Shown here in pieces: positions 3,846 to 63,087 of a stretch of DNA of 64,000 nucleotides. Numbering within the stretch: the first letter of the stretch is position 1; every line of letters starts with the position of its first letter. Source of the stretch: Candidatus Latescibacterota bacterium. Its GTDB lineage: Bacteria; Latescibacterota; UBA2968. The notes beneath the pieces were generated by a model. That model was given only the letters and a program-made list of their open reading frames with translations, did no database searches and was not told where the DNA came from. The position numbers and the translations under genes were made by a program. The DNA is taken from contig OZ242010.1 of NCBI GenBank assembly GCA_965204745.1, forward strand, positions 1,920,001 to 1,984,000, written 5' to 3'.

Positions 3846-4269
3846 GGTTGTGTTGACATTTCATTTTTTAACCTTACGCACAGAGTAGCAACTGTGTTGC
3901 TTCTTGCTCATTTAAGGCGTTTGGTCCTTTGATGGCTTAGATTGCTCTGATGGCATTGCGCGAGGGGACCTATCCCCCGGCCCCTTTCCTACGAGGAAAG
4001 GGGAGTAAAGCTCCTTTGATGGCTTCTCGCTCTGGTTGCTCTGATGGCGTTGACCGAGGGCATAAAGCGATTAAATATCCCTCATCAATCCCCTCGCAAA
4101 ATCGCTCACAGTTCCCCCCTTCCTCGCAGGAAGGGGGGTTAGGGGGGTAGGTCCCGATAAGGAGCGACTGTTTCAGTTTCTCAAACCGAGAGCCTATTCT
4201 GTGATAGAGCTTGATTTTCTCGATAAACCGCTCAAGCCAGTTGCTTTGCTCCTAAATGTCAACAGAACC
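3846..4269. mobile_element. Non-autonomous MITE-like element with IS5-type terminal inverted repeats
   Basis: GGTTGTGTTGACATTT ... AAATGTCAACAGAACC with flanking TA; 15/16 and 16/16 identical to the TIRs of the IS at 41721-42538; no transposase. Confidence 0.8.
3965..4155. repeat. REPIN-like element, copy 1 (inverted GGGACCTAYCCCC..CCTTCCT.CGAGGAA units)
   Basis: Homologous copies at 5599-5831, 38822-39100, 55366-55590. Confidence 0.85.
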
Positions 4270-5598: not shown

Positions 5599-5831
5599 GA
5601 CCTATCCCCCCGGCCCCCTTTCCTACGAGGAAAGGGGGAGCGCATGGCTTTCTTAAAGGTTTGTATCCCTGGCTGTTTTGATGGCTTTGAGCGAATGGAT
5701 CACGCCATAGAAACCCAAACCCCCCTCGCACAATCCCTCGCAAAACCTCTCGCCATTCCCCCCTTCCTCACAGGCACAGGCGTAGCCTACAACGAAGCGT
5801 AGCGAGTAACGGGGCCAGGGGGGTAGGTCCC
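5599..5831. repeat. REPIN-like element, copy 2
   Basis: Same inverted ends as 3965-4155; internal insert shared with the 55366 copy. Confidence 0.8.
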
Positions 5832-6924: not shown

Positions 6925-7293
6925 TCAATCGTCCAGCGCGTGCGCGACGAGATCGTCCATATCGACAAATTCGAGCGTGGAAATGTGCGTCCCCGGCAAA
7001 AAGACGGGCGGGGCAACGCCTGCATCTCGGGCTTCGATCCAGCGTTGCACGCACAGGCACCAGCGGTCGCCGGGCTTGAGCCCTGGAAAGCGATATTCCG
7101 GCATCGGGGTGCTCAGGTCATTGCCCACGGACCGGGAGAAAGCCAAAAACTCCTCGGTCATTTCCGCGCAGAGGATGTGCAATCCCAGATCGCCCGGACC
7201 CGTGCGGCAACAGCCATCTCGAAAAAAACCCGTCATCGGTTCGGTACAACAATCGACGAGTTCTCCGCCAAAAACATTTCTTCCGCGGTTCAT
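6925..7293 (-). CDS. DUF2237 family protein
   Basis: NVFGGELVDCC.EPMTGFFRDGCC..GNDLSTP..FPGLKPGDRWCLC. Confidence 0.9.
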   Translation of the reverse strand: MNRGRNVFGGELVDCCTEPMTGFFRDGCCRTGPGDLGLHILCAEMTEEFLAFSRSVGNDLSTPMPEYRFPGLKPGDRWCLCVQRWIEARDAGVAPPVFLPGTHISTLEFVDMDDLVAHALDD

Positions 7294-7385
7294 GGTTCAC
7301 TCCAGGTGAGAGGCAAGAGGTGAGAAGGAAGAGGGCCGCCCTGCCCAACCCCCTTCGGCAAGACGGGAGATACTCTCTTAAAAGG

Positions 7386-8393
7386 TCAAGGGGTTTTCGG
7401 GGTGATTCGATAGAATTTTTCGCCCTCAAAATCTTGGTCATGGCGCAACATGCCCCAGATCGAATGGAGCAACTTTCGCATCACCGCAACGATAGCCTGC
7501 AAAGGTTTCTTGCCGCGGGCGATGAGTTGGTCATAGAAGGCTTTGACATGGCCTTCGTGTCTGATGGCCACCCAGGCAGGCATATAGAGGGCATGGCGGA
7601 GGTACTTATTCCCGGTTTTCGAGATGCGTCTTTGTGGATTGGCGGTTCCGGATTGTTTGGGTTTGGGATCCAGGCCTGCATGTGCGACCCACTGGGGCGG
7701 TTGCATCTCCTCTGGCAAAAGGGTCAACTCGGCCAAGAGCCGCAAGGCACTCGTTTGCGCGATGCCAGGCGTCGAGCAGAGGCGTTGGTAGGCACGCTTG
7801 AGGGGCTCATCGTGCAAAACGAGATCGAGGGCTTGGCTTTCCAAGTATGCAATCCGGCGTTTGAAGTGTCGAATATTCACCTGAATATCGCGTGCGATGA
7901 GACGTGTGCTGCGGATGTGGTAGCTCTGCGCGTGGTTGCGGCTCTGTTCGCGGATGATCTCCTGCTTGAGTTGGTCAATGCGTCTGGTGAGGGCTTGCAG
8001 TTGAAGCCGTTGCTCGCTCGGCGCTTGCCAAGGCACAAAAGGCATGCGCTCGGCATAGTCGAGGATCAACAACGCATCCTTCGCATCCGTCTTCGCCCGT
8101 TGCATGCAGGCTTGGGCGTACTTGCTCATCGCTTTGGGATTGACGACCATGACCTTTGTGTGGCGATGCCGATGCAAGGCCAAGGCCACCCCCAAACTGT
8201 AAAGCCCGGTCGCTTCGAGGCACACAGAGACCATGTGCCCGCCCTTCGTGAGCCACTTCAGCAACCGCTTATGGGCTTGGGGATCATTGGCAAAGGTCGC
8301 TTGCATGACAGCTTGTCCGGGTCTGGACAGGGCAACGGACAACGTGCGGGCACTGACATCAATGCCGGCAAAAGCGGGGTGAGATTTCGACAT
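7386..8393 (-). CDS. IS110 DEDD transposase (bridge recombinase)
   Basis: GIDVS, CLEATG, KTDAKDA, QSG serine motif, ISKTGNKYLRHALY; RBS CAGGAGG. Confidence 0.95.
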   Translation of the reverse strand: MSKSHPAFAGIDVSARTLSVALSRPGQAVMQATFANDPQAHKRLLKWLTKGGHMVSVCLEATGLYSLGVALALHRHRHTKVMVVNPKAMSKYAQACMQRAKTDAKDALLILDYAERMPFVPWQAPSEQRLQLQALTRRIDQLKQEIIREQSRNHAQSYHIRSTRLIARDIQVNIRHFKRRIAYLESQALDLVLHDEPLKRAYQRLCSTPGIAQTSALRLLAELTLLPEEMQPPQWVAHAGLDPKPKQSGTANPQRRISKTGNKYLRHALYMPAWVAIRHEGHVKAFYDQLIARGKKPLQAIVAVMRKLLHSIWGMLRHDQDFEGEKFYRITPKTP

Positions 8394-8409
8394 GGGGGCC
8401 TCCTGTGAT

Positions 8410-8645
8410 GAGGGGGTTGTAAGGGATCTGGTGCGCGCTCGGGGTCGCGTCCCGACCATTGACGCCAAGTCTACCGGTCTTGTATATGCAGCCTCAAGGG
8501 GCTTAGATACTCTTCGGCATAGACCCGGCGGTCGGGGGGCCTATCTTACCTACAAGGTCATCGCCTTCAAGAGGGGCCGGCCTTCCCCGAGCCGGGCATC
8601 AAGATGGCTTATCTCGATACGAGGGCGCAACTCCTAATTAACCCT
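8410..8645 (-). ncRNA. Putative IS110 bridge RNA (ends approximate)
   Basis: Two stem-enclosed internal loops with guides matching the donor junction (8505-8513, 8479-8485) and the target (8570-8576, 8545-8551). Confidence 0.78.
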
Positions 8646-8680
8646 TACTTCCAAGATACAAGAGGGGAGAGGCAAGAGGT

Positions 8681-8803
8681 GAGAAGGCCACCCAATAACC
8701 CCAAGTGAGAGGGGAGAGGCAAGACGGGAGAAGGCCACCCAACCAACCCCAAGTGAGAGGGGAGAGGCAAGAGGTGAGAAGGCCACCCGACCAACCCCAA
8801 AAC
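8681..8803 (+). repeat. Tandem ~42-49 bp units (heptamers + GAGAAGGCCACCC..CCCCAA)
   Basis: Three units; inverted homologous cluster at 27590-27745. Confidence 0.75.
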
Positions 8804-8867: not shown

Positions 8868-10214
8868 TTAATTTGCATAAGACACAGTGCCGGTTTCATC
8901 GACCGTATAGCCCCACTGGTCGATATACGCCGCGCCGGGTAGAAACGAGTCGTTTTGTGCGTCGAGGCGGCGTTGTAGCCAGGCGTCTAATTCGAGTCGC
9001 AACTTCGCGTAGTCGGGGTGGTCGATGAGATTGTTCAACTGGAAGGGATCGGCATCGTTGTCGTAGAGCAACCACGGGCCGTCCAATGAGCGAACGTACG
9101 TGTATTGCCCGGTGCGTAGGCCGCGGTATTCACGGCCTCCCTTTGCGCGTGTCCACTGCCCAAAGGGTTGCGGGCATTGCAACAGAGCCGCGCCATCAGA
9201 GGGCGTGTCGCCCCCGTTGAGATAGGCCGAATAATCCAAGCCCTCGACCGTGGCCGGGATGTCGATCCCGCACAGGCCCAACAGCGTGGGCATGATGTCC
9301 GGGATGTCGATGGGGGCGTCAATCTCGCGGCCCGATGCGCCGAATTGCGCGGGCCAGCGCAACAAGAACGGAATGCGAATGGACTCGTCCCAAGGCTGTT
9401 GCTTTTTCGCGCTGCCCTGCGAGCCGAGCATGTCGCCGTGATCCGAAAAAAAGAGCAAGATCGTGTTGTCCGCCATGCCCGCGTCGTCGAGGGTTTGGAG
9501 CAGGTCGCCCATGCAATCGTCGAGCGCGGTGCAATGGGCGTAGTATCCCGCGATCCATTGTCGGGCGTTTGCTTCGGATTGCGGGGGCACATTGGGGCGC
9601 AACGGCACGTCTTCTGCGCGATACATGGCGCGGTATTTTTCCGGCGCGGTTTCATAAGGCGCGTGCGGCGGCCCCCACGAGAGCGCGAGGAGGAAGGGGT
9701 TGTCCGCATTGCGATTTTGAATGTAGGCTTGCACGTCGCGCGTTTGTGCGATGGCGTCGTATCCCTCCCACAGGAGCTTTTCGTCCGAGTTATCGGCATA
9801 GTAAAAAGATCGGTTGTAATTGTGCGTGCATTCCAACACTTTCCAATAGTCAAAGCCCTGCCGGTTTTCAGGGGGAATGTAGTTGGATCGCCCATTTGCA
9901 TGGACGTGCCATTTGCCGACGTACGCAGTGTCGTAGCCCGCGTTTTTGAATGCATGGGCAAGGCTCATCGCCCTGTCGCTCAGGTGAACATCGTTGACAA
10001 AAACCCCGTGCGTGAGGGGGTATTGACCCGTGAGCAGAGACGCACGCGCCGGGCTACAGACCGAGCACCCGGAAACCGCGTGCGTGGCATTGATGCTTTG
10101 AGACGCGAGCCGGTCGATGTTGGGCGTTTGCACGCAGGTGTTGCCGGCATAACCAAATGCCTGTGCGCGCCACTGATCGCCGAAGATGAGGATGACATTG
10201 GGAGATTCGGGCAT
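8868..10214 (-). CDS. Formylglycine-dependent sulfatase
   Basis: PNVILIFGDQWR, CSPAR, GKWH, SDHGDMLG. Confidence 0.93.
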   Translation of the reverse strand: MPESPNVILIFGDQWRAQAFGYAGNTCVQTPNIDRLASQSINATHAVSGCSVCSPARASLLTGQYPLTHGVFVNDVHLSDRAMSLAHAFKNAGYDTAYVGKWHVHANGRSNYIPPENRQGFDYWKVLECTHNYNRSFYYADNSDEKLLWEGYDAIAQTRDVQAYIQNRNADNPFLLALSWGPPHAPYETAPEKYRAMYRAEDVPLRPNVPPQSEANARQWIAGYYAHCTALDDCMGDLLQTLDDAGMADNTILLFFSDHGDMLGSQGSAKKQQPWDESIRIPFLLRWPAQFGASGREIDAPIDIPDIMPTLLGLCGIDIPATVEGLDYSAYLNGGDTPSDGAALLQCPQPFGQWTRAKGGREYRGLRTGQYTYVRSLDGPWLLYDNDADPFQLNNLIDHPDYAKLRLELDAWLQRRLDAQNDSFLPGAAYIDQWGYTVDETGTVSYAN

Positions 10215-10538
10215 GGAAATTCCTTTGGTTTGAGAGGTGATCCCGCATAAAACCGCGCCTATATTATGGTCGAGCAAGCCCCTTGTCAATATGTCTGACG
10301 AAGGGAATCTGTGATGCGGTTAGATTCTGGCAGACGAATAGTCAGTAGTCAGTGGTCAGTGGTCAGTGGTCAGGTGCGATTTGATGCAGACAGACGAATA
10401 GTAGGTCCAAAAAAATTAAACCAGCCTCGCAGAAATCGGGACTTGCCCCACGCCTGTGATTTTGCTTAATTTAGCAAACCCAAGTTCTCGTCGATAAAGA
10501 CAGGGACAACCGCGCCATTTTGCGATGAGGGAAAAAAC

Positions 10539-11252: not shown

Positions 11253-12362
11253 ATGCTGACGAGTTTTACCGTAACAAATTTTCGCAATCTCGAGTCGGTC
11301 ACATTGGAACGCCTCGGGCGAATGACGCTGATCGGCGGAAAAAATGGGGTGGGCAAAACGGCTCTTCTCGAAGCACTCTGGTTGCTCGCGGGTTCAGATC
11401 TTCCGGAATTGAGTGGGCGAATAAATTCATTCAGGGGGCTTCCAACACTTGGGCCTGAAACGATTTTTCAAGACATCTTTCGCAACTTCGATACGCGGAC
11501 GCACATCAAAATGAGTGCATCGGGAGATTGGGGAAGCCATCCGCGAAAATTGGAGATCTATTTACAGAAACGCCAACAGGTCGATACCATCCGTTCAGAT
11601 GCTTTGGAAAGGGCGAGCATAGAACGGTTGACGCGCCCCCTAACCGAAGGCGAGTTTGAACTCGTGTTTCGATACCAGCATGGCAGTGATGACGCCTACA
11701 CATCCCGAGCATGGTGGGTTGCAGAGCAGATGCCGGTTGGCCCTGTCACCGCGTTGACGAATGAGGGTATCCGCCAAGAGCGACAATCCGTCCACAACAG
11801 GACCAATTCGGTATTCATGCCAGCGGTTCTCCGAGACAGCCTCCAAGCCATTGCATTGAGGTTTGGCAAATTTCAGTTGGAGAGAAAGGATGCCGAAATT
11901 CTGAGGTTCTTGTGTCTTTTGGAACCGCGCTTGACGGGATTGACCCTTATCGCGATCAACAATATACCCGTCATCCACGCGTACCTAGACGGCATGAGCA
12001 GGCCCATCCCCGTCCAGTTGCTCGGTGAAGGTTTGAACCGGATGCTCGGACTCGTGTTGTCTATGAGCGAGGCGAGTGGCGGATTGCTCTTGATAGATGA
12101 GATCGAAAACGGCTTGCATCACACCGTACAAGAAAAAGTGTTTTCCATCCTGCTGGACATGGCCGGATCATTTGATGTGCAGATATTCGCCACGACGCAC
12201 AGCGACGAGTGTATCAGGGCAGCGCACCGGGGGCTCGCAAAACAGGGGCAGCAAGCGTTGGCATTCTACCGCCTTGATCGCGTTAAAGAATCGGTCAAGG
12301 CGGTGGGCTTTGACAGCGAGCGGATCGAAACGGCCATCAAATACAACATGGAGATCAGGTAA
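11253..12362 (+). CDS. ABC-type/AAA_21-like ATPase
   Basis: NFRNL, Walker A GKNGVGKT, signature LGEG, Walker B LLIDEIENGLH, TTHS. Confidence 0.88.
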   Translation: MLTSFTVTNFRNLESVTLERLGRMTLIGGKNGVGKTALLEALWLLAGSDLPELSGRINSFRGLPTLGPETIFQDIFRNFDTRTHIKMSASGDWGSHPRKLEIYLQKRQQVDTIRSDALERASIERLTRPLTEGEFELVFRYQHGSDDAYTSRAWWVAEQMPVGPVTALTNEGIRQERQSVHNRTNSVFMPAVLRDSLQAIALRFGKFQLERKDAEILRFLCLLEPRLTGLTLIAINNIPVIHAYLDGMSRPIPVQLLGEGLNRMLGLVLSMSEASGGLLLIDEIENGLHHTVQEKVFSILLDMAGSFDVQIFATTHSDECIRAAHRGLAKQGQQALAFYRLDRVKESVKAVGFDSERIETAIKYNMEIR

Positions 12363-12510
12363 GACGTAAGACGTAAGACGTAAGACGTAAGACGTAAGAC
12401 GTAAGACGTAAGACGTAAGACGTAAGACGTAAGACGTAAGACGTAAGACGTAAGACGTAAGACGTAAGACGTAAGACGTAAGACGTGAGACGTGAGACGT
12501 GAGACGTGAG
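12359..12510 (+). repeat. Heptamer array (GTAAGAC)x18 + (GTGAGAC)x3
   Basis: Perfect tandem repeat overlapping the ATPase TAA stop. Confidence 0.97.
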
Positions 12511-12547
12511 AAGGCAACCCATCAAATACAATATGGAGATCGGATAA

Positions 12548-18693: not shown

Positions 18694-18738
18694 GCAAAGC
18701 GTCTTTGACCCGAATCAACCCAATGGAAAGATGGGATT

Positions 18739-18846
18739 TTAGCCACGAGCGGGGTACAACTGGCGGTAGCCAGTTCAAAGCCACAAAAGGCACAAAAGCC
18801 ACAAAAGGTGAGCGATATGTGTAGGGGCGATGCCCCGTGCTCGCCC
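18739..18846 (+). repeat. Hairpin repeat + CACAAAAGG nonamers + GTAG-REP
   Basis: Same module order as 1551-1675. Confidence 0.8.
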
Positions 18847-22196: not shown

Positions 22197-22391
22197 TCAC
22201 TTCACAATTTCGCGCAAAAAATCTTCCGCTGAATATTCGTTGCAACCCACCGCTGCCATTACCAAATCCAATATTTCGCGCCGCGTTCTGCGCACATAGA
22301 GCAGATCTTCTTGCACCTCTTTGGATTTTCGCTCGCCCAGCCGTTCCCCGATCTCCTTGGGCGTCAACCACGCATTTCCCGCCTCTGCCAT
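22197..22391 (-). CDS. Small hypothetical protein
   Basis: 64-aa helical, protein-like ORF; TTGACA promoter-like site upstream near 22467. Confidence 0.5.
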   Translation of the reverse strand: MAEAGNAWLTPKEIGERLGERKSKEVQEDLLYVRRTRREILDLVMAAVGCNEYSAEDFLREIVK

Positions 22392-22514
22392 TGTCGTTCC
22401 CTCGCGTTGAATGGGTCTGGGTTTGAGTAATGGGTGCGAAAATAAATCATGAGAAGGATAATGTCAATAGGGGCAAGAGGGGAGAGGCAAGAGGCAAGAT
22501 ACTCTCTTAAAAGG

Positions 22515-23522
22515 TCAAGGGGTTTTCGGGGTGATTCGATAGAATTTTTCGCCCTCAAAATCTTGGTCATGGCGCAACATGCCCCAGATCGAATGGAGCA
22601 ACTTTCGCATCACCGCAACGATAGCCTGCAAAGGTTTCTTGCCGCGGGCGATGAGTTGGTCATAGAAGGCTTTGACATGGCCTTCGTGTCTGATGGCCAC
22701 CCAGGCAGGCATATAGAGGGCATGGCGGAGGTACTTATTCCCGGTTTTCGAGATGCGTCTTTGTGGATTGGCGGTTCCGGATTGTTTGGGTTTGGGATCC
22801 AGGCCTGCATGTGCGACCCACTGGGGCGGTTGCATCTCCTCTGGCAAAAGGGTCAACTCGGCCAAGAGCCGCAAGGCACTCGTTTGCGCGATGCCAGGCG
22901 TCGAGCAGAGGCGTTGGTAGGCACGCTTGAGGGGCTCATCGTGCAAAACGAGATCGAGGGCTTGGCTTTCCAAGTATGCAATCCGGCGTTTGAAGTGTCG
23001 AATATTCACCTGAATATCGCGTGCGATGAGACGTGTGCTGCGGATGTGGTAGCTCTGCGCGTGGTTGCGGCTCTGTTCGCGGATGATCTCCTGCTTGAGT
23101 TGGTCAATGCGTCTGGTGAGGGCTTGCAGTTGAAGCCGTTGCTCGCTCGGCGCTTGCCAAGGCACAAAAGGCATGCGCTCGGCATAGTCGAGGATCAACA
23201 ACGCATCCTTCGCATCCGTCTTCGCCCGTTGCATGCAGGCTTGGGCGTACTTGCTCATCGCTTTGGGATTGACGACCATGACCTTTGTGTGGCGATGCCG
23301 ATGCAAGGCCAAGGCCACCCCCAAACTGTAAAGCCCGGTCGCTTCGAGGCACACAGAGACCATGTGCCCGCCCTTCGTGAGCCACTTCAGCAACCGCTTA
23401 TGCGCTTGGGGATCATTGGCAAAGGTCGCTTGCATGACAGCTTGTCCGGGTCTGGACAGGGCAACGGACAACGTGCGGGCACTGACATCAATGCCGGCAA
23501 AAGCGGGGTGAGATTTCGACAT
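22515..23522 (-). CDS. IS110 DEDD transposase (bridge recombinase)
   Basis: Protein identical to copy 1. Confidence 0.95.
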   Translation of the reverse strand: MSKSHPAFAGIDVSARTLSVALSRPGQAVMQATFANDPQAHKRLLKWLTKGGHMVSVCLEATGLYSLGVALALHRHRHTKVMVVNPKAMSKYAQACMQRAKTDAKDALLILDYAERMPFVPWQAPSEQRLQLQALTRRIDQLKQEIIREQSRNHAQSYHIRSTRLIARDIQVNIRHFKRRIAYLESQALDLVLHDEPLKRAYQRLCSTPGIAQTSALRLLAELTLLPEEMQPPQWVAHAGLDPKPKQSGTANPQRRISKTGNKYLRHALYMPAWVAIRHEGHVKAFYDQLIARGKKPLQAIVAVMRKLLHSIWGMLRHDQDFEGEKFYRITPKTP

Positions 23523-23538
23523 GGGGGCCTCCTGTGAT

Positions 23539-23774
23539 GAGGGGGTTGTAAGGGATCTGGTGCGCGCTCGGGGTCGCGTCCCGACCATTGACGCCAAGTC
23601 TACCGGTCTTGTATATGCAGCCTCAAGGGGCTTAGATACTCTTCGGCATAGACCCGGCGGTCGGGGGGCCTATCTTACCTACAAGGTCATCGCCTTCAAG
23701 AGGGGCCGGCCTTCCCCGAGCCGGGCATCAAGATGGCTTATCTCGATACGAGGGCGCAACTCCTAATTAACCCT
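23539..23774 (-). ncRNA. Putative IS110 bridge RNA, copy 2
   Basis: Same sequence as the copy 1 leader. Confidence 0.78.
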
Positions 23775-24148
23775 TACTTCCAAGATACAAGAGGGGAGAA
23801 GGCTACCGGGCTGTTCCTCAAGTTGTCAGTTGTCAGTTGACTAATTCTAACGAACATAGCGGTGGGGAGCGGGCGGGCACGCACGGGTGGCGGGGTGGAG
23901 CAGATGGGGACGCACGGGCGGTTGGGTAGGGCGGTGGGCAGATCTCACCTCTTACTTCTTGCCTCTTACTTGGGGGCAGGGCTTGCGGTGGGGCGGAGGG
24001 GGTAGGGTAATCCGCGCAATCCCCTAATCCGCGAAAATCCGCGATCCGCTTTTACTCTTGAACTATTTTTATATCTGTATTATAGTTGGCCTTACCACGT
24101 AACGACATATCGCCTCTCTGCTCCCCATTCCATTGGAGGCGTTTTTTT

Positions 24149-25441
24149 ATGGAACAATTTGTCATTGAAGGTGGGCATCCGCTGGCGGGCACAGTGGTTC
24201 CGGCGGGCAACAAAAATGCGGCGCAACCGCTGTTGGCCGCGACCTTGTTGACCGAAGAACCCGTGGTGCTCAAGAATGTGCCACAAATCGGCGACATCGG
24301 CGTTATTGTCGAGATTTTGCGCGACCTCGGCGCAGAAGTCCGCGAGTCGGGCGATCACGAACTCGCGGTTTGTACCAAAGGCGTCGACAAATCCGCGTTG
24401 CGCGCAGACCTGTGCCGAAAAGTGCGCGGCAGTTTTATGTTTGCCGGGCCCCTGTTGGGCCGCTTTGGGCAAGCGACCATTCCGCGCCCTGGGGGCGACC
24501 GCATTGGCCGGCGGCGCGTGGATACCCACTTGATCGCGCTCGAAGAACTCGGCGTGCGGTTCCACACCAACCACATCTACGATTTTCAGGCACCCAGGGG
24601 GCTCGTCGGCGCGGACATTTTTTTGGACGAGCGCAGCGTCACCGGCACGGAAAACGCGGTCATGGCCGCGGTGCTCGCCCGCGGCACCACCATCTTGTCC
24701 AACGTGGCATCCGAGCCGCATGTGCAAGAACTGTGTTTCATGCTCAACGACATGGGCGCGCAAATTTCGGGCATCGGCACAAATGAAATGGTGATCGAAG
24801 GCGTGTCCAAACTCGGCGGCACAACGCACACCATCGGGCCGGATTACATGGAAGTCGGCAGCTTTATCGGCCTGGCCGGAGCCACCAACAGCGAGATTCG
24901 CATCGTCGATGCCGCGCCCAAAAACATGCGAAAGACCTTGATGGTATTTCGGCGGTTGGGCCTCGAAGTCGAAGTCGATAGACGAGACATCGTCGTGCCG
25001 CCCTTTCAAAAGCTGGAAATCATGCCCGACGTGGGCGATGCGATCCCGCGCATCGACAATGACCCATGGCCGGGGTTTCCGCCCGATTTGATGAGCATTG
25101 CCATCGTCCTTGCCACGCAGGCGCGGGGCACCGTGTTGTTTTTTGAAAAAATGTTTGAACAGCGCATGTACTGGCTCGACCGCCTCATCGACATGGGCGC
25201 GAAAATCGTCATTTGCGACCCGCACCGCGCCGTCGTGGTGGGGCCGTCCAAACTCTACGGCGAGCATCTGACGAGTCCGGATATTCGGGCGGGCATGGCA
25301 TTGATCATCGCGGCATTGTGCGCCGAAGGGCAAAGCGTGATCCGCAACATCGAACAGATCGACCGCGGATACGAACAAATCGACACGCGCTTGCGGGCCT
25401 TGGGCGCGCACATTCAGCGGGTGACAGTGGAAGATGGATAA
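24149..25441 (+). CDS. murA: UDP-N-acetylglucosamine 1-carboxyvinyltransferase
   Basis: [40 protein letters not shown]. Confidence 0.95.
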
Positions 25442-27589: not shown

Positions 27590-27745
27590 TTTGGGGTTGT
27601 TGGGTGGCCTTCTCCCGTCTCCCTTCTTGCCTCTCACTGGTGGATGGGCTGTTGGGCGGCCCTCTCCCGTCTCACTTCTCGCTTCTTACCGGTGGATGGG
27701 CTGTTGGGTGGCCTTCTCCCGTCTCACTTCTCACTTCTTACTGGT
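27590..27745 (-). repeat. Tandem units homologous to 8681-8803
   Basis: TGTTGGGTGGCCTTCTCCCGTCTC x3. Confidence 0.75.
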
Positions 27746-28452
27746 AGATGGGCGGAGGCGGGCTGACCACTGACCGCTGACAGGTCATCGTCATCCACCG
27801 GCGGGCTGGCAATTGCGCCCACAGACACGGCATGCGCGCCTGCGGCCCACAGAGCGAGAACGCACGCATTGAGCGTCGCGCCGGTAGTGATGACGTCGTC
27901 AATCAAAAAAATGTCGCGGCCCGCAATGGTCGCGGGTTTCCGCACGCGGAACGCGCCCATCACATTGTATTGGCGTTCAAAAACGCCCAAGCGCGTTTGC
28001 GTGGGGGTGGCGCGGACGCGATTTAGCGCGTTGGGGATCACGCGGACGCCCGATACCCGGCCAGCAGCCCTTGCGATTATCTCGCTCTGATTGTACCCGC
28101 GTGCTCGTTTTTTGGTCGGATGGAGGGGCACTGGAACGATCACCGAGTCCGGATTGACCATATTCGCAATCCGTTGCCCCAGTGCCACCCCGAGTATTTG
28201 CCCGGGCAGGGTTTTGCCCCGGTATTTGAGCGCGTGAATCAATGCCCGCACGCAGTCGTTAAATTGGTACAAAATCACCGCGTGATCAAAGTCGCATTCA
28301 AAATTCTCCTCGCTTGGCGTCCAATCCTCGAATTCCTCTGTGCAGGCATCGCATATCCCCGGCGCGTCCGGCAACGATGTGCTGCAAATCAAGCAGGACG
28401 ACGGATACACAAAATTGAGGGCCGCACGCCAAAGTTTTTTCGCTGGTTGCAT
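27724..28452 (-). CDS. comF: ComF family amidophosphoribosyltransferase
   Basis: CLIC..ICDAC, PVPLH..RGYNQSE, LIDDVITTGATL. Confidence 0.9.
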   Translation of the reverse strand: MQPAKKLWRAALNFVYPSSCLICSTSLPDAPGICDACTEEFEDWTPSEENFECDFDHAVILYQFNDCVRALIHALKYRGKTLPGQILGVALGQRIANMVNPDSVIVPVPLHPTKKRARGYNQSEIIARAAGRVSGVRVIPNALNRVRATPTQTRLGVFERQYNVMGAFRVRKPATIAGRDIFLIDDVITTGATLNACVLALWAAGAHAVSVGAIASPPVDDDDLSAVSGQPASAHLPVRSEK

Positions 28453-33279: not shown

Positions 33280-33368
33280 GATGGCGTTCCGCGTGGTGGT
33301 GATTGGCGAGATGTGATTTTGTAAATGTATTACATTTTGCAGAAGGCGTCAAATTGAAAGATGGGAAC

Positions 33369-33452
33369 TTAGCCACGAGCGGGGTACAACTGGCGACAGC
33401 CAGTTCAAAGGCACAAAAGGCGTTTAGCCACAAAGGGCACAAAAGGCACAAA
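33369..33452 (+). repeat. Hairpin repeat + CACAAAAGG nonamers
   Basis: TTAGCCACGAGCGGGGTACAACTGGCGACAGCCAGTTCAAAGG. Confidence 0.8.
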
Positions 33453-38821: not shown

Positions 38822-39100
38822 GGGACCTACCCCCCTAACCCCCCTTCCTGCGAGGAAGGGGGGAACTGTGAGCGGTTTTGCGAGGGTATTGATGAGGGAT
38901 TTCTAATCGCTTTATGCCCTCGGTCAATGCCATCAGAGTAACCAGAGCGAGAAGCCATCAAAGGGACTTTACTCCCCTTCCTCGTAGGAAAGGGGCCGGG
39001 GGATAGGTCCCCTCGGTCAATGCCATCAGAGCAACCCTAAGCCATCAAAGGAGCTTTACTCCCCTTTCCTCGTAGGAAAGGGGCCGGGGGATAGGTCCCC
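38822..39100. repeat. REPIN-like element, copy 3 (three units)
   Basis: Near-identical to 3926-4155 in inverted orientation. Confidence 0.85.
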
Positions 39101-39116
39101 TCGTGCAGAGATAGAG

Positions 39117-47631: not shown

Positions 47632-50600
47632 ATGTTGAAGAAAGGATTGTTGTTTATTACCGCTCTGGCGTTGTTGGCATTTGTGGGCCAAGCTTCCGCT
47701 GGCCCCAATGCCAATGCCGTTCTGTCTTTGGACATCGATGCCAGCGATAATAAAATGGATGATGGCAATACATCGGGCACCGTTGAGGGTGCTGGTACCG
47801 ATGTTGTCGTCGAGGTGTTTATCACGGGGTTGGCAGGCCCAATTAGCGGTGGCACTTTGTCCTTTAATACGGATATGCTGACCGTCAAAAGTGTGGCTGT
47901 AGGTGCAGGATTTCTTTTAGGTACTACCGATCAAACTGCTAGTATTGGTATTCTACCGGCGGCTACCTTGACCAATGGTCATTTCGCGACTGTTACGTTT
48001 ACGACTGCTTCTGATGTAACAGGCAGGGAGTTCACAGTTGGTGCTAGTGTGAATAATCTGGCTGCTGGTGATGGTAGTACTGATATGCTTACCGCGGCGA
48101 CGTCATTGACTTTTAATGCCTCTACGACGCAACCGCCGATGCCGCCGACTCCTCCTACGCCGATGCCTCCTACATCTACGGTGGGGCCAGCGTTGGATAT
48201 CGGCACCAGTAGCAACGGCATGAATGATGGCAATGTGTCGATTAATGCCGAAGCCGGTAGTACTGTTGTTGTTGAAGTTTTTGCCGGCGCAAATTTGTCT
48301 CCAATCGGTGGCGGTAGCATAACCTTTTCTCAGGCTATCGGCGAAGTCAACTTCGCCCAGGACAATTGGCAAATTGTGGGGGGACTAAAGGATGGAGGCA
48401 AAAAGGTTGACTTTAGTGCCTTAAATGGCGGTCTTGCCACCCTGAACGCCGAAGGTTTCTTAGGTGCTGTGAGCTTTACGGTTGCCTCGGTACCTGCCAC
48501 AATTAGTATTGAGCAACTCGTTTTGGCTTTTGAGTCAGGTGCTGATACACTGTCTGTTAGTAATGTGGCGGTGACGATTTTGCCGCCCACGCAGTTTAGG
48601 TTGACCGCCTCTGAAGAGATGGCGACGATTCCTTATGGCGGAAGTGCTATGATTACACTGACCGCTGAAGGCTTTGCCGAAGATGCTTTTATTGACTTTA
48701 CTGTTGATCCAGATGTGCTTGAAAGATTAGCGGAAGGTGCGGTCCTGACGCTTACGGCTACCAGTGCCGCTACGGTGACGGTGACGGCCAGCGTTGGGGA
48801 AGATTCAACCAACCCTGTCACCGTTGAGTTTGTAGAAGGGCCACGGCCGCCTCATTTGATTTCGGATAGAGAAAGCCCTGTCACAATCCCTCATGATTCC
48901 AGTGTTACAGTGACGGTGACAGCAGTGGATTTTGACGGGATAGTCAGATGGCCTGATCTGCCAGCTGGAGCTGAAGTCCGCGGCAATACAGTGACTCTGA
49001 CAGTCAGCGATGCGGCTACGGTGACCGTGATGGCCAGGGATGATTCAAACAACCAGGATGAGCTTACCATTGAGTTTCTGCACGCTCCCTATCTTGAGGC
49101 TGATACAGACATGGTGTTGGTGCATCGTGACAGCAGTGTCGCTACTGGCATGGCTACGGTGACAGCGATGGGCTTTGATGAGGATGCTGACATTAACTTC
49201 ACTGTTGAGCCGATGGATGCGGTTGTTGAGTCGCAGGAAGGTGCTGTGCTGACGCTGACAGCCAGCGATGCTACGACAGTGATGGTGACAGCCAGCGATG
49301 GCAGAGTCACAACCTCACCGATATCCATTGAGTTTCAACTTGATCCCTATCTTCGTGCGGATAAGGACAGCCCGGTTGAAATTCCGCCTGATAGCAGCGT
49401 TGTGGTTAAGGTGACAGCCATGGACTATCCTGCTGATGCTAATATTTCGTTCGATTCTTCGCAGACATCGACGGAAGGTGATGCGGATACTGATCTGGTG
49501 GAGTTTAATGATGATAAGTATGCACTGTTGACAGTTAGTGGTTCTGGTTCTACTACTGTGACGGTGGAAGCCACCGATGGTACCACAACGAGAACGGTCA
49601 CCGTTCAGTTTATTCAACCCGTGAAGTTGGAATTATCGGAAGAACTTTCAGATAGCCTTATCTCCACTCTGAAGGAGGGTAGCGTTACGGGTACGGTGAC
49701 AGCCCTGCATTTCCCTGATGACGCTGCTCTCGATTTTGGTGTTGAGGTAGTAGAAACAGAGGATGGGGCTGAGGTTGAATCCTCGCAGGATGGTGCAGTC
49801 CTGACCTTAATCGCTAGTGGTTCTGGTTCGGCTACTGTGACGGTGACAGTCAGTTCTGACAAATACGAACACCTCACAGTTGACCCAATCACCCTTCAAT
49901 TCATTCATCCTCGGCTCGTGGCGGATGCAGATAGCCTCATTATTGAGCCTGGTAGCACTGCTGTGGCTACGATTGTAGCAAAGGATTTTCCTGCTGATGC
50001 TGATGTTAAATTTGAACTGACAAAAGATGTAGACGAGTCGGTTACAATTGACCAGCAGATACGTCCCCGTGAAGTGGTTTTAACTGTCCAGGGTTCTGGT
50101 TCTGCTACTGTGACAGTGAGGGCCAGTTCTGGCGAAGGTGAGGACCTGATAACCGCCGCACCTGCGATCATTCAGTTTGATCCTCCTGATCCTCCTGATC
50201 CTCCTGATCCTCCTGGACCTCGACCTGCTCTGGTGTCGGATGCAGATGAATACGTGATTCCACCTGATGGCGATGTTGTGGCGACGCTTACAGCCATGAA
50301 TTTCCCCGAAGGTGCTACTATTGCGTTCAACTGGATAACAGTAGATGCAGAGGGGCCGGAAGTTACGATTGATGAGGGGTCAGAAGGTGCTGTTCTGACC
50401 TTGACCGCCAGTGGTTCTGGTACGGCAAAAGTTGAAGTGAGGGCAACTGATGGTGCGATCTCTGTTGCAGATACCATTCAGTTTATTCAGCCTTCCCTCA
50501 TGCTCGCATCGGATGCAGAAGATAACCAAGTCTTGATTCCGCATAATGCCAGTGCGACGGTTACGGTTACAGCCGAGGGTTCTCTTCCTACCGGTGCTAC

Positions 50601-53055
50601 GGTTGATTTTACGTGGACGCCCGAAGATGATGTTGAAGGGGTTGTGTCGGAGGATAGTGATACGCTGACGCTTACCTCCAGCAGTGCGGCTACTGTGACA
50701 GTGTCGGCCAGTGCTGCTGACGACAAAATCACAGCCGACCCAATCACCATTCGGTTTACTGAACCTCAACCCCGACTTGTGTCGGATGTCGGTAACGCAG
50801 TCGTGATCCCACTTGCAGGTAGTGCTGTGGCGACGATTACAGCCATAGATTTCCCTGCTGGTGATGTGATTACGTTCGATGTAGATATAGTTACAGACGG
50901 TTCGGCTAAGGTTGAACAGTCGGCGGAAAATACTGTCCTGACCTTGACCGCTAGTGGTTCTGGTTCTGCTACTGTGACAGTGAGGGCCAGTTCTGGCGAA
51001 GGTGAGGACCTGATAACCGCCGCACCTGCGATCATTCAGTTTGATCCTCCTGGACCTCGACCTGCTCTGGTGTCGGATGTAGATGAATACGTGATTCCAC
51101 CTGATGGCGATGTTGTGGCGACGCTTACAGCCATGAATTTCCCCGAAGGTGCTACTATTGCGTTCAACTGGATAACAGTAGATGCAGAGGGGCCGGAAGT
51201 TACGATTGATGAGGGGTCAGAAGGTGCTGTTCTGACCTTGACCGCCAGTGGTTCTGGTACGGCAAAAGTTGAAGTGAGGGCAACTGATGGTGCGATCTCT
51301 GTTGCAGATACCATTCAGTTTATTCAGCCTTCCCTCATGCTCGCATCGGATGCAGAAGATAACCAAGTCTTGATTCCGCATAATGCCAGTGCGACGGTTA
51401 CGGTTACAGCCGAGGGTTCTCTTCCTACCGGTGCTACGGTTGATTTTACGTGGACGCCCGAAGATGGTGTTGAAGGGGTTGTGTCGGAGGATAGTGATAC
51501 GCTGACGCTTACCTCCAGCAGTGCGGCTACTGTGACAGTGTCGGCCAGTGCTGCTGACGGCAAAATCACAGCCGACCCAATCACCATTCGGTTTACTGAA
51601 CCTCAACCCCGACTTGTGTCGGATGTCGGTAACGCAGTCGTGATCCCACTTGCAGGTAGTGTTGTGGCGACGATTACAGCCATAGATTTCCCTGCCGATG
51701 CTGATGTTAAATTTGAACTGACAAAAGATGTAGACGAGTCGGTTACAATTGACCAGCAGATACGTCCCCGTGAAGTGGTTTTAACTGTCCAGGGTTCTGG
51801 TTCTGCTACTGTGACAGTGAGGGCCAGTTCTGGTGAAGGCGAGAATATGATCACCGCATCTGCTACCATTCGGTTTGATCACGCAAGGCTTGTGTCGGAT
51901 TCGGATGCAAATAAATATGTGATCCCACCTGATAGCAGTGTTGTAGCTACGATTACAGCAGTAGGTTTTCCTGAAGATGTTGGGATTACATATGAATGGG
52001 TTCGGGTTGTGGCAGATGGACCGGAAGTTACGATTGATGAGACGGTAGAAGGTGAAGTCCTGACCTTGACCGCCAGGGGTTCTGGTGAAGTTACTGTGAT
52101 GGTGCAGGGCACAGGGGGCGACATAACTCGTGAAATCACCATTCAGTTTGGTCAACCTCTACCTCCTGATCCTCCTGATCCTCCTGATCCTCCTGGTCTT
52201 AGTGTTGATCAAGATGTCTCGGATGAAATAGTCACTCTTCCGGGTGGTGGTATTCCTGCAAGAGTTCGGGTTACAGCAGAGAATTTCCCTGCCGATGCTG
52301 AGATTACATTCAGTGTGGAGAGTGTAGGTAACGCTACGGTTGAACATTCGCAGGATGGTGCTGTACTTACTCTGGAAGTTACTGGTCCTGGTGCGGCGAT
52401 TGTAACAGTGATGGCCACAGATGGCGCCACAACGTTTGAGAAAACCATTCAGTTTGACGAGCAGGTTGCCGTCGAATTGTCGTCTTTTGTCGGCGAGGTG
52501 GTCGAAAAGCGCGTGGTGCTCAACTGGGCGACGGTTTCGCAGACCAACAACGCGGGGTTCCGCGTGCTTCGCAGCACGGATCGGGAAACCTACGAAGTGG
52601 TCAGTGAATTGATCGCCGGTGCAGGTACGACCGATCAGTTGATGGATTACACGTTTGAAGATGCCGACTTGCCCGCTGTTGAACTCGTTTATTACGTGCT
52701 CGAGCAGATCGACATCGATGGCACGGTGCATCGTTCAGACCCCATCGAGGTGCTGTTGGGGGCGCGGTTCTTGTTGCCCACGGAATTTGCCTCGTCTGTT
52801 TATCCCAATCCGTTTAACCCGAGCACGACCATTTCCTACGATCTGCCCGTTGATGCCGATGTTTCTATCGTCATTTACGACGCGATTGGTCAGGAAATTC
52901 GTCAACTCGTCAGCGAGTATCGCGCAGCGGGTCGGTATAACGTCCGGTGGGATTCCAAAGACCATCTCGGTCGTAGCGTTGGTAGCGGCGTTTATATCGC
53001 CAAAATCAAGGCGGGTCAGCATACGGCCCTTCAAAAGATGTTGCTGTTGAAGTAA
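47632..53055 (+). CDS. 1807-aa acidic secreted surface protein with tandem ~90-aa Ig-like modules and FlgD/T9SS-type tail
   Basis: Signal peptide; repeated VLTLTASGSGSATVTV; DPP linkers; VELSSF..LNW; YPNPFNPSTTI.Y..GSGVY..KMLLLK. Confidence 0.85.
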   Translation: MLKKGLLFITALALLAFVGQASAGPNANAVLSLDIDASDNKMDDGNTSGTVEGAGTDVVVEVFITGLAGPISGGTLSFNTDMLTVKSVAVGAGFLLGTTDQTASIGILPAATLTNGHFATVTFTTASDVTGREFTVGASVNNLAAGDGSTDMLTAATSLTFNASTTQPPMPPTPPTPMPPTSTVGPALDIGTSSNGMNDGNVSINAEAGSTVVVEVFAGANLSPIGGGSITFSQAIGEVNFAQDNWQIVGGLKDGGKKVDFSALNGGLATLNAEGFLGAVSFTVASVPATISIEQLVLAFESGADTLSVSNVAVTILPPTQFRLTASEEMATIPYGGSAMITLTAEGFAEDAFIDFTVDPDVLERLAEGAVLTLTATSAATVTVTASVGEDSTNPVTVEFVEGPRPPHLISDRESPVTIPHDSSVTVTVTAVDFDGIVRWPDLPAGAEVRGNTVTLTVSDAATVTVMARDDSNNQDELTIEFLHAPYLEADTDMVLVHRDSSVATGMATVTAMGFDEDADINFTVEPMDAVVESQEGAVLTLTASDATTVMVTASDGRVTTSPISIEFQLDPYLRADKDSPVEIPPDSSVVVKVTAMDYPADANISFDSSQTSTEGDADTDLVEFNDDKYALLTVSGSGSTTVTVEATDGTTTRTVTVQFIQPVKLELSEELSDSLISTLKEGSVTGTVTALHFPDDAALDFGVEVVETEDGAEVESSQDGAVLTLIASGSGSATVTVTVSSDKYEHLTVDPITLQFIHPRLVADADSLIIEPGSTAVATIVAKDFPADADVKFELTKDVDESVTIDQQIRPREVVLTVQGSGSATVTVRASSGEGEDLITAAPAIIQFDPPDPPDPPDPPGPRPALVSDADEYVIPPDGDVVATLTAMNFPEGATIAFNWITVDAEGPEVTIDEGSEGAVLTLTASGSGTAKVEVRATDGAISVADTIQFIQPSLMLASDAEDNQVLIPHNASATVTVTAEGSLPTGATVDFTWTPEDDVEGVVSEDSDTLTLTSSSAATVTVSASAADDKITADPITIRFTEPQPRLVSDVGNAVVIPLAGSAVATITAIDFPAGDVITFDVDIVTDGSAKVEQSAENTVLTLTASGSGSATVTVRASSGEGEDLITAAPAIIQFDPPGPRPALVSDVDEYVIPPDGDVVATLTAMNFPEGATIAFNWITVDAEGPEVTIDEGSEGAVLTLTASGSGTAKVEVRATDGAISVADTIQFIQPSLMLASDAEDNQVLIPHNASATVTVTAEGSLPTGATVDFTWTPEDGVEGVVSEDSDTLTLTSSSAATVTVSASAADGKITADPITIRFTEPQPRLVSDVGNAVVIPLAGSVVATITAIDFPADADVKFELTKDVDESVTIDQQIRPREVVLTVQGSGSATVTVRASSGEGENMITASATIRFDHARLVSDSDANKYVIPPDSSVVATITAVGFPEDVGITYEWVRVVADGPEVTIDETVEGEVLTLTARGSGEVTVMVQGTGGDITREITIQFGQPLPPDPPDPPDPPGLSVDQDVSDEIVTLPGGGIPARVRVTAENFPADAEITFSVESVGNATVEHSQDGAVLTLEVTGPGAAIVTVMATDGATTFEKTIQFDEQVAVELSSFVGEVVEKRVVLNWATVSQTNNAGFRVLRSTDRETYEVVSELIAGAGTTDQLMDYTFEDADLPAVELVYYVLEQIDIDGTVHRSDPIEVLLGARFLLPTEFASSVYPNPFNPSTTISYDLPVDADVSIVIYDAIGQEIRQLVSEYRAAGRYNVRWDSKDHLGRSVGSGVYIAKIKAGQHTALQKMLLLK
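50092..51840 (+). repeat. Internal near-identical direct repeats (837-bp period plus a 1704-bp-offset module)
   Basis: ~50206-50860 vs ~51043-51697; ~49990-50130 vs ~51694-51834. Confidence 0.9.
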
Positions 53056-55335: not shown

Positions 55336-55590
55336 CGGGGGCCGGGGGGTAGGTCCCATTAAAACGGGACCTACCCCCCAACCCCCGTTACTTGCTTCGC
55401 TTCGTTGTAGGCTACGCCTGTGCCTGCGAGGAAGGGGGGAACGAGGATCGGTTTTGCGAGGGATGGGGTGAGGGATTTTTAATCGCTTTATGCCCTCTGT
55501 CAACGCGCCATCAGAGTAGCTATTGATATAAGCCTTCAAAGGAGCTTTGCTCCCCTTTCCTCGTAGGAAAGGGGCCGGGGGATAGGTCCC
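55336..55590. repeat. REPIN-like element, copy 4 (plus a half unit)
   Basis: GGGACCTACCCC ... GGGGATAGGTCCC. Confidence 0.82.
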
Positions 55591-57857: not shown

Positions 57858-57871
57858 GGTGAGACGGGATT

Positions 57872-57958
57872 TTAGCCACAAAAGGCACGAGCGGGGTACA
57901 ACTGGCGATAGCCAGTTCAAAGGCACAAAAGGGGTACAATGGCGATAGCCAGTTCAAA
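57872..57958 (+). repeat. Hairpin repeat + nonamers between arc and dop
   Basis: Same family as 1551, 18739, 33369. Confidence 0.8.
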
Positions 57959-61348: not shown

Positions 61349-62806
61349 ATGAGAGATCGCATTTTTGGTTTGGAGACCGAGTACGGGTGTTTGGCACCCG
61401 AACGCGATGGCTTTGTGAGTCCAGACGCGATTTCGGTCAAGGTGAAGGATCACATTTTTTTTGTGGATCGAATCGGGATTGTGGATATCCACTATCGCGG
61501 GCGAGACGAACCCCCGGGCAATGGGGGTTTTCTCTTGAATGCCGGGCGCGTGTATATCGACATGGGGCATTTGGAATACGCCACCCCCGAATGCGCGGGC
61601 CTGTGGGATATCGTGGCGTTTGATCGGGCCGGGGATCTCATTTTCCACCGGGCATTGCAGGCACTCGGCTCGGGCAAGGAAGCGTCGTTTTTGAAGAATA
61701 ACATCGATCACTATACGGGGGCGACATTTGGCTGCCATGAAAATTACCTGATTCGGCGCCATGTGCCATTTTCCACGGTGGTGATTCCCGCGCTGTTGCC
61801 GTTTTTGGTGACGCGCCAAATTTTTTGCGGCGCGGGTCGCGTGGGCAGTTATGACGACAGTTTTTATTATTACGGCCGCGATGCGCGAGATACTGCGGAG
61901 AGAGAAGACCCGGTGACTTTTCAGATTTCCCAACGTGCGGATCACATCGTGACGGAGATCTATCAGTGGATTCAGTTTTCGCGTGCGATTATCAATACGC
62001 GGGATGAGCCGCTAGCCGATCACAGCAAGTATCGCCGGTTGCACCTTTTGGTGGGCGATTCAAATATGTCGGAGTATGCCACGGCATTGAAAATTGGTAC
62101 GACTGCGATGGTGCTCAATCTGTTGGAGCGAAAGATTTTTCCGCACGATCTCAGCTTGGGGGATCCGGTGTGGGCACTCAAAGAGATTTCGCGCGATCCA
62201 ACGCACAAATGGTTGCTGTACCGGTACAATGGCCGAAGCATTTCGGCGATTGATATCCAGCGCGAGTATTTGGCCTTGGCGCAACGCCACTTGAGGGGGC
62301 TGGATGCAGAGTCGGATTGGGTGCTCGATGCGTGGGAGCGCACGCTCGATGATTTGGAGGCCGATCCCATGCAACTGTCGGATCGGTTGGACTGGGTGGC
62401 GAAGAAGTGGTTGCTGAATGCGTTCCGCGAATCGGAAAATTTGAGTTGGAATGATCCGTGGTTGCAGAGTTTGGATTTGGAATACCACAATATCGATCCC
62501 AATCGCGGGTTGTATTTCGATCTGGAGCAACAGGGCAGGATGCAGCGCGTGTTGACCGATGATCAAATTGAACGCGCCTGCCTGACGCCTCCAATAGATA
62601 CGCGGGCAAAAGCGCGAGCCGCACTGGTGAAGACGCTGTCGGAGAACCGGATGCGGTACATTGTGGATTGGGATTCGGTGTATTTGGAAAATGAACACCA
62701 CTTGAATCTGCGCGATCCGTTTTGCACGTACGACGAGGAAGTCGCAGAGCTTTCTCGGGAGATCAAAGTCGAATCGCGGACAATTGATGCGAGGCGGAGG
62801 CGGTGA
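61349..62806 (+). CDS. pafA: Pup/UBact ligase PafA-like
   Basis: [41 protein letters not shown]. Confidence 0.87.
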
Positions 62807-63087
62807 GAGGTGAGAGGTGAGAGGTGAGAGGTGAGAGGTGAGAGGTGAGAGGTGAGAGGTGAGAGGTGAGAGGTGAGAGGTGAGAGGTGAGAGGTGAGAG
62901 GTGAGAGGTGAGAGGTGAGAGGTGAGAGGTGAGAGGTGAGAGGTGAGAGGTGAGAGGTGAGAGGTGAGAGGTGAGAGGTGAGAGGTGAGAGGTGAGAGGT
63001 GAGAGGTGAGAGGTGAGAGGTGAGAGGTGAGGCAAGAGGTGAGAGGCAAGAGGTGAGAGGCGAGAGGCGAGAGGCGAGAGGCGAGAT
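62804..63087 (+). repeat. Heptamer array (TGAGAGG)x32 followed by variants
   Basis: Perfect from 62804 to 63027, starting at the pafA TGA stop. Confidence 0.97.

Follow-up and report, generated by a model that had tools for sequence, protein, structure and literature searches.

Among the IS110-family insertion sequences (ISs) described so far, IS621 of Escherichia coli is reported to target a site in dispersed repetitive extragenic palindromic (REP) hairpin elements, and its four guides, CT core and right-end -35 box are defined in the same report (Durrant et al., 2024, PMC11208160). The catalytic residues of its recombinase are given as D11/E60/D102/D105/S241 in a second study, which also describes handshake guides (Hiraizumi et al., 2024, PMC11208158). 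In Pseudomonas putida, ISPpu9 and ISPpu10 belong to the same family and are described as present in multiple copies that home to a single repeated intergenic sequence. RNA-guided choice of the insertion site is also described for the IS1111-group elements with a seekRNA, which have a DEDD recombinase (Siddiquee et al., 2024, PMC11187229). Here, we have analyzed an IS110-family element in a 64-kb stretch of the genome of Candidatus Latescibacterota bacterium (contig OZ242010.1, positions 1,920,001 to 1,984,000; hereafter the window, whose numbering is used unless genome positions are indicated). An initial annotation of the window, made from the sequence alone, had proposed that this element homes into the heptamer tandem repeats of its genome. 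Our results suggest that it is very probably an active, bridge-RNA-guided IS of the IS110 group, with a target loop whose guides address the point where two purine-rich heptamers adjoin.

A BLAST search of the element against the genome that holds the window (G000; one 5.48-Mb contig, 56.5% G+C) identified 52 full-length copies, which take up 1.2% of the genome, and ∼25 partial matches. Element boundaries were set from the 52 aligned copies, the copies in related genomes and a coordinate check. On the plus strand every copy has the same layout (variable flank, AG, ATACTCTC ... CAAGATACA, AG, flank), and the core, which reads CT in the orientation of the recombinase, was present at both junctions in all 52 copies as well as in 23 of 23 copies of relatives in which the ends were found. 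Direct reading of the ends TGTATCTTGG and AAGAGAGTAT showed that they do not form inverted repeats, and there is no target duplication longer than the core. We then restored the landing sites in silico by removing the element and one core. In each of the 52 sites the core-bearing unit fits the purine-rich heptamer pattern GGNRAGA, always in one register and with the CT core at both ends of the copy; in-phase units were found on both sides in 44 sites and on one side in seven, and the remaining one (the partner in a tandem pair) had the central unit only. Tandem Repeats Finder (TRF) detected 1,162 period-7 arrays in G000, and the purine-rich arrays of period 7 or 14 (485 arrays) amount to 20,885 bp, which is 0.38% of the genome. 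Since such arrays take up so little of the genome, chance placement is excluded. Thus, the proposed homing to heptamer repeats is supported by all full-length copies, and none of those in G000 was found in an unrelated sequence context.

The target in the recombinase orientation is CCCCT-CT-TRCCT, which corresponds to AGGYA-AG-AGGGG on the plus strand within ..GGYAAGA|GGGGAGA... A logo of the insertion flanks had full or near-full information from -5 to +5, and only the 7-nt periodicity of the arrays further out. At insertions on array edges (for example, genome positions 4228638 and 1407892), the five guided bases were kept though the outer flank was non-array. Among the 45 copies with at least 96% identity to the query, which share the same target loop, the restored 12-mers were AGGTAAGAGGGG (20 copies), AGGCAAGAGGGG (17), AGGTAAGAGGTA (4), ACGGGAGAGGGG (2), AAGTAAGAGGGG (1) and GGGCAAGAGGGG (1), and 37 of the 45 matched the guides exactly. 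It should be noted that many copies are located at the last heptamer unit before the spacer of a composite repeat.

The guides that correspond to this target were found in a 267-nt non-coding leader at the left end of the element (23523-23789, minus strand), which is predicted to encode the bridge RNA, as judged from its fold and a consensus. Two modules, each composed of a stem, an internal loop and a hairpin, could be recognized in it, although the z-score of the single-sequence fold was only -1.98. The target-binding loop (module 1, 23667-23711, minus strand) carries a left guide, CCCCUCUUG (23697-23705), and a right guide, AGGUAAGA (23673-23680). The former, whose reverse complement is CAAGAGGGG, is the same as the top strand of the site, CCCCT-CT-TG, and is therefore able to pair with the bottom strand; the latter is complementary to the top strand T-CT-TACCT. 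Thus, the spelling GGYAAGAGGGG given for the guides in the initial annotation was a fair summary, as both guides are present. The donor-binding loop (module 2, 23603-23646, minus strand) contains the left guide AGAGUAUCU (23634-23642), which matches the right end of the element (..AGAGTAT-CT), and the right guide AUACAAGA (23607-23614), which matches its left end (CT-TGTAT..). Both modules were recovered in an RNAalifold consensus of eight homologous leaders (four from subfamilies of G000, one from each of the relatives G016, G018 and G030, and the last from a metagenome-assembled genome of Gemmatimonadota), with compensatory changes in 9 of 38 pairs. In this alignment the scaffold columns were conserved and the target-guide columns varied; the donor-guide columns were conserved across relatives, as are the ends of the element. 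The donor loop was read by pattern only in copies with at least 99% identity (15 of the 52 had no match), and the target-loop pattern missed the 95.7% copy.

If the guides specify the landing site, natural changes of the guides may be informative, and further investigation of the subfamilies and relatives revealed that guide and flank change together across subfamilies and species. First, the five G000 copies with ∼89% identity have a different left guide (CGCCUCUUG in four and UGCCUCUUG in one) and the right guide AAGUAAGA. Their flanks are CGCCT-CT (three copies) or CACCT/TACCT-CT (two copies, allowed by G-T wobble) on one side and CT-TACTT on the other (4 of 5), and the CCCCT flank of the main lineage occurred in none of the five. 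Second, a DNA search of 30 relatives detected the element in three of them, and a protein scan with one genome per species detected 25 loci in two sister genomes and one distant locus in a Gemmatimonadota genome. The recombinases of the sister genomes are 76-84% identical (76-78% protein identity for the G018 copies). In G018, which has 18 copies, the guides are CUCGCCUCU and GGGAG, and the flanks are RCCT-CT (17 of 18) and CT-CCC (16 of 18); by eye, 16 of the 18 copies are located in heptamer arrays, and the junction used differs (CGGGAGA|GGYGAGA). In G016, five of seven copies could be resolved (loci L034 and L037, which lack the right-end motif, were left out of the flank table). They have the guides AUCCUCCUUG and AGAAAAGA, the flanks YC-CT and CT-TTTCT (4 of 5) and positions outside arrays; one G016 copy with AUCCCCCUUG has the site GCCCC-CT. 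The G030 element (70% identity) was used for structural alignment only, as its guide and flank did not resolve cleanly. These differences amount to a natural reprogramming of the guides, in which few guide bases differ between close bridge RNAs and the insertion sites shift in step, within a single genome as well as between three sister genomes.

A census of four-unit GGNRAGA runs gave 522 in G000, 204 in G018, none in G016 and 0-2 in each of the other 28 genomes. Thus, heptamer-directed guides occur in exactly the two genomes that bear such arrays (G000 and G018). A bolder explanation of this distribution is that element and arrays co-evolve. Guide variants would then partition the heptamer repertoire (GGYAAGA|GGGGAGA for the main lineage, AGTAAGA|GGYRAGA for the 89% lineage and CGGGAGA|GGYGAGA for G018), and the recombinase may add or remove 7-bp units, with adjacent or sister units each giving a CT core and half-matches, and thereby contribute to both the origin and the upkeep of the purine-rich arrays. 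We regard such co-evolution as rather unlikely, and, if true, it would explain why such arrays were found in abundance only in the two genomes with matching guides (522 and 204 versus 0-2 in the 29 others). Another class of heptamers, of the CAGTNGT type (GTCAGTT, CAGTGGT and CAGTAGT), is unrelated and is found in the window at 10341-10373, 23821-23839 and 27763-27781; its four-unit hits are patchy in the genus (798 in G000, 43 in G001, 40 in G009, 17 in G008, 12 in G016 and none in G018).

The same observations bear on explanations that need no guide. One may suppose that the element inserts widely and that copies survive only in harmless heptamer arrays, the match to the guides being incidental. 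Such passive retention is very improbable: it leaves unexplained that all 52 copies share both register and orientation relative to the unit, that the exact 12-mer is found in 37 of 45 copies and that guides and flanks co-vary in the subfamily and in relatives; moreover, none of the 52 copies is located in the CAGTNGT-type class, despite its higher four-unit count in G000 (798 hits). Recognition of the polypurine heptamer by the protein or through DNA structure (for example, an unusual helix geometry), without RNA guidance, might draw on the strong purine/pyrimidine asymmetry of the arrays and on the 'sequence-structure dual-match' layer that a preprint describes for ISPpu10 (10.64898/2026.03.19.712850). 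Yet sister recombinases that are 76-84% identical use different sites, which track the differences between their guides, and the array-edge insertions keep the five guided bases in spite of a non-array outer flank, so we give this possibility very little weight as well. Finally, spread by segmental duplication or inter-array recombination instead of transposition is hardly credible, for although arrays provide homology and one tandem pair exists, flanks beyond ∼15-30 nt are unrelated among most copies, and all 52 copies have a CT core and boundaries that are exact to the base. The two members of that pair (genome C1:1121591-1124187, starting at 1121591 and 1122888), arranged head to tail with five bases and the cores between them, belong to different subfamilies (96% and 100%) and therefore represent two separate insertions into adjacent heptamer units of one array.

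RNA-guided insertion at the heptamer junction is also in line with the protein. The recombinase gene (22515-23522, minus strand) encodes 335 amino acids with a DEDD RuvC-like domain and a Tnp domain, as assigned by Pfam and homology. The match to PF01548 (DEDD_Tnp_IS110) has an E-value of 1.2e-24 and 87.3 bits (cut-off 29), and that of the C-terminal Tnp domain to PF02371 (Transposase_20) an E-value of 4.8e-20. The best match among solved structures is the ISCro4 recombinase (PDB 9t56; E 7.6e-40, residues 7-326), and the IS621 recombinase (PDB 8wt6) matches over its full length (E 5.8e-36). Alignment of the GID, EATG, KTDxxDA and SG motifs to IS621 and ISCro4 points to D12, E60, D103, D106 and S248 as candidate catalytic residues. 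By every sequence feature tested, the element belongs to the IS110 group of bridge-RNA elements. All 57 matches to PF01548 in G000 fall at places of BLAST hits of the element (places compared by eye), which indicates that it is the only IS110 family in this genome. The frame of 335 amino acids is intact in 51 of the 52 copies, the exception being a copy at genome position 3890249 with a stop at 262 amino acids, and 34 copies encode the same protein. Identity to the query is at least 99% in 37 copies (30 of them identical), ∼96% in eight, 95.7% and 94.8% in one each and ∼89% in five.

The element would move in several steps. By analogy with IS621, it would first leave as a circle, whose joined ends would form a donor site (..GAGTAT-CT-TGTAT..) together with a sigma-70-like promoter, to which the right end would contribute the -35 box and the left end the -10 box. 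This promoter would drive both the bridge RNA and the recombinase, the donor guides would pair with the circle junction, and the DEDD/Ser recombinase would swap strands at the CT core, giving a scarless insertion in phase with the array. When right end, core and left end were joined in silico, TTGACC-18-TATCTT was found over the junction in G000 and TTGACC-17-TATCTT in G016. A promoter scan of the integrated copy detected no sigma-70-like site upstream of the leader at the integrated left end; of its two hits, one falls in the flank (22467-22439) and the other within the gene. Sequencing runs matching the element numbered 20 in eight studies, all of them assembled contigs, with sponge and marine metagenomes included and none of RNA.

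Several observations weigh against guided insertion at heptamer junctions, or at least against its being the complete explanation. First, 8 of the 45 copies are located at sites with one to three guide mismatches, among them the other copy in the window (copy 1), which has the half-matched site ACGGG-AG-AGGGG (ACGGG for AGGYA), with three of five right-target positions mismatched; this off-type site is shared with one other copy (genome position 5150716). Such sites imply either that factors other than guide pairing play a part or that half-matched insertion occurs. Second, some conserved flank positions (+6 to +8, -6, -7 and -10) lie outside the guided bases and owe their conservation to the array context, which means that the guides do not specify the entire logo. 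Third, the co-occurrence of arrays and guides is based on three IS-bearing genomes that are mutually kin. Fourth, the joined ends of G018 remain below the promoter criteria (8 of 12 by reading), and Rfam 15 gave no match over 22300-24000 at E-values up to 1. Finally, no clean empty site and no circle joint were detected in contigs over 22200-24100 from four of the sequencing data sets; these contigs are short and break at the ends of the element, and hence carry no information on activity. As a separate observation, the title of a 2026 preprint refers to half-match recombination, which is possibly relevant to the site of copy 1. Short solo left-end remnants (..CCTCT-TGTATCTT..), which deletion or one-sided (half-match) recombination may have left behind as scars, adjoin arrays or full copies in G000 (C1 4730092, 2089406, 950639 and 2972651), and similar remnants are present in the flanks of G018 loci L047, L051 and L052.

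We also measured how far the available sites are occupied. G000 contains 70 free exact 12-mers, compared with ∼1.8 expected from base composition, and 64 of them are inside arrays. The Y position is C in 65 and T in five of these free sites. Occupancy is 20 of 25 for the T form and 17 of 82 for the C form (Fisher odds ratio 15.3, p = 1.2e-7, a value that is only indicative because the sites are not independent events). At a T site, the right guide pairs by Watson-Crick rules, whereas the left guide has a wobble pair at its last base, and at a C site the reverse is the case; thus, pairing of the right guide may count for more than that of the left. In the window, 66 matches with up to two mismatches were found, versus 6.85 ± 2.63 in shuffled sequences. 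The similar unoccupied sites that had been noted near 1693, 8706, 8755 and 22472 do exist, but none is exact: compared with AGGYAAGAGGGG, the site at 22471 has one mismatch and those at 1690, 8703 and 8751 have two each, and the window contains no exact free target site. In addition, an unoccupied composite repeat (..CCGCAAGCCCT..CCAAGTAAGAGGCAAGAAGTAAGAGG..) is located beside copy 2 (23943-23990, minus strand), and all five 89% copies occupy this type elsewhere.

Because heptamer arrays hold many target sites, the element was able to reach 52 full copies. Each array gives several registers of one site, and array slippage could create new ones, which may explain the large burst (52 copies, 34 with the same protein). 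It is plausible that the arrays serve as the renewable or safe harbour suggested in the initial annotation, in favour of which are the 7-bp unit, the array that was hit twice and the presence of another free exact site within 100 nt of 5 of the 52 copies. As regards gene context, long arrays are unlikely to be coding, since seven is not a multiple of three. Stop-to-stop frames of at least 150 codons cover 42 of the 52 restored sites versus 1853 of 2000 random positions, a comparison that was set aside, as spurious long frames arise from purine-rich repeats and from a GC-rich genome. The neighbours of copy 2 are short frames at 22197-22391 (minus strand) and a long frame at 24086-25441; those of copy 1 are long open frames, with ends at 7025-7323 on one side and a new start at 8868 on the other.

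The two copies in the window illustrate these features at base level. Copy 2 occupies 22499-23791 on the minus strand (a 1,291-bp body plus one CT core, 1,293 bp in total). In the recombinase orientation, its left end begins with TGTATCTTGG at 23789 and its right end closes with AAGAGAGTAT at 22499, and the second copy of the core, AG on the plus strand and invariant at the two junctions of all 52 copies, lies at the right-end junction (22497-22498, minus strand). The span first proposed, 22470-23805, does contain the element but takes in the flanks. To the left of copy 2 are the plus-strand heptamer units GGCAAGA GGGGAGA GGCAAGA GGCA.. (22472-22496; TRF array 22472-22499; in-phase units 3 + 1 + 1), which together with the right flank AGGGGAGA (23792-23799, plus strand) make up the split target. 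Copy 1 (7370-8662, minus strand; 1,293 bp; recombinase gene 7386-8393) is located 15,129 bp upstream and obtains the left-target half of its site from a composite repeat array with heptamers (8661-8800, plus strand; TRF period 48 nt, 2.9 copies). The restored sites read GGCA-AG-AGGGGAGA for copy 2 and GACGGG-AG-AGGGGAGA for copy 1. Removal of the element thus restores an in-phase heptamer run, as had been claimed, although the junction strings originally quoted were slightly off. Comparison of 7368-8670 with 22497-23799 revealed one differing base (8274 G/23403 C), which is the last of the three in Ala codon 40 (GCC versus GCG). The proteins are identical, and the earlier statement that the window copies differ by one synonymous base only was therefore accurate.

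The window also contains several other repeats. A run of 41 pure GGTGAGA units (62802-63086) holds only two-mismatch versions of the IS target, all unoccupied, and 22 pure GTAAGAC units are located at 12359-12511. Composite repeats at 8661-8800 (48 nt) and 27594-27753 (52 nt) consist of three or four heptamers and a GGCCACCCAACC-like spacer. A dispersed repeat of ∼70 nt with an internal hairpin (..GGGGTACAACTGGCGATAGCCAGTTC..) is found at 1534-1603, 18722-18791, 33352-33421 and 57864-57933 and often adjoins runs of the nonamer AAAGGCACA. Another family (60-180 nt, both orientations, 83-99% alike) looks like miniature inverted-repeat transposable elements (3942-4155, 5723-5831, 38822-39107 and 55366-55590). 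Long in-frame direct repeats at 48700-52400, which are spaced by 828-864 nt and by multiples of three, suggest a gene for a large repeat-domain protein.

The mechanism proposed here is that of an ordinary bridge-RNA IS110 element and is already known; it is the kind of landing site that is unusual. Our literature search found no report of an IS110 element homing to simple tandem repeats as its natural target, although supplementary tables may hold one, which agrees with the initial view that such targeting had not been described. Where the papers found mention a 'tandem repeat', the term refers to tandem copies of the element or of its cargo. The element also widens the range of known natural IS110 targets, which comprises dispersed hairpin repeats, transposon ends and sites of a similar kind, to include simple tandem repeats. 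The value of the finding therefore lies in natural history and comparison, the mechanism being an established one. With respect to engineering, the T/C occupancy (20/25 versus 17/82) and the half-matched insertions provide natural data on the tolerance of mismatches and wobble pairs.

When compared with known systems, the element resembles the IS1111 group in its DEDD recombinase and RNA-guided site choice. In that group, the non-coding region that encodes the guide lies downstream of the gene, and the elements have subterminal inverted repeats. An IS1111 type was considered here and rejected, because the guides and the long non-coding region are upstream of the gene and the distance from the stop codon (22515) to the right end (22499) is only 16 nt. 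The likeness to ISCro4, compared by protein match alone, is one of recombinase homology. ISPpu9 and ISPpu10, as far as they have been described, differ in having palindromic REP targets, whereas the targets here are tandem simple repeats. The published account of IS621 agrees in the recombinase architecture, a left-end guide RNA upstream of the gene, two internal loops, the CT core, a left and a right guide in each loop that extend over the core and pair with the same strands, and a repeated sequence, intergenic in IS621, as the natural target. The guided arm, as read from the matches, is 5 nt on each side of the core here, compared with arms of reportedly 7 + 4 in IS621. The main difference is in the target itself, which is described as a REP hairpin for IS621 and is the junction of two simple 7-bp tandem units in the present element, so that one array can offer several in-register sites.

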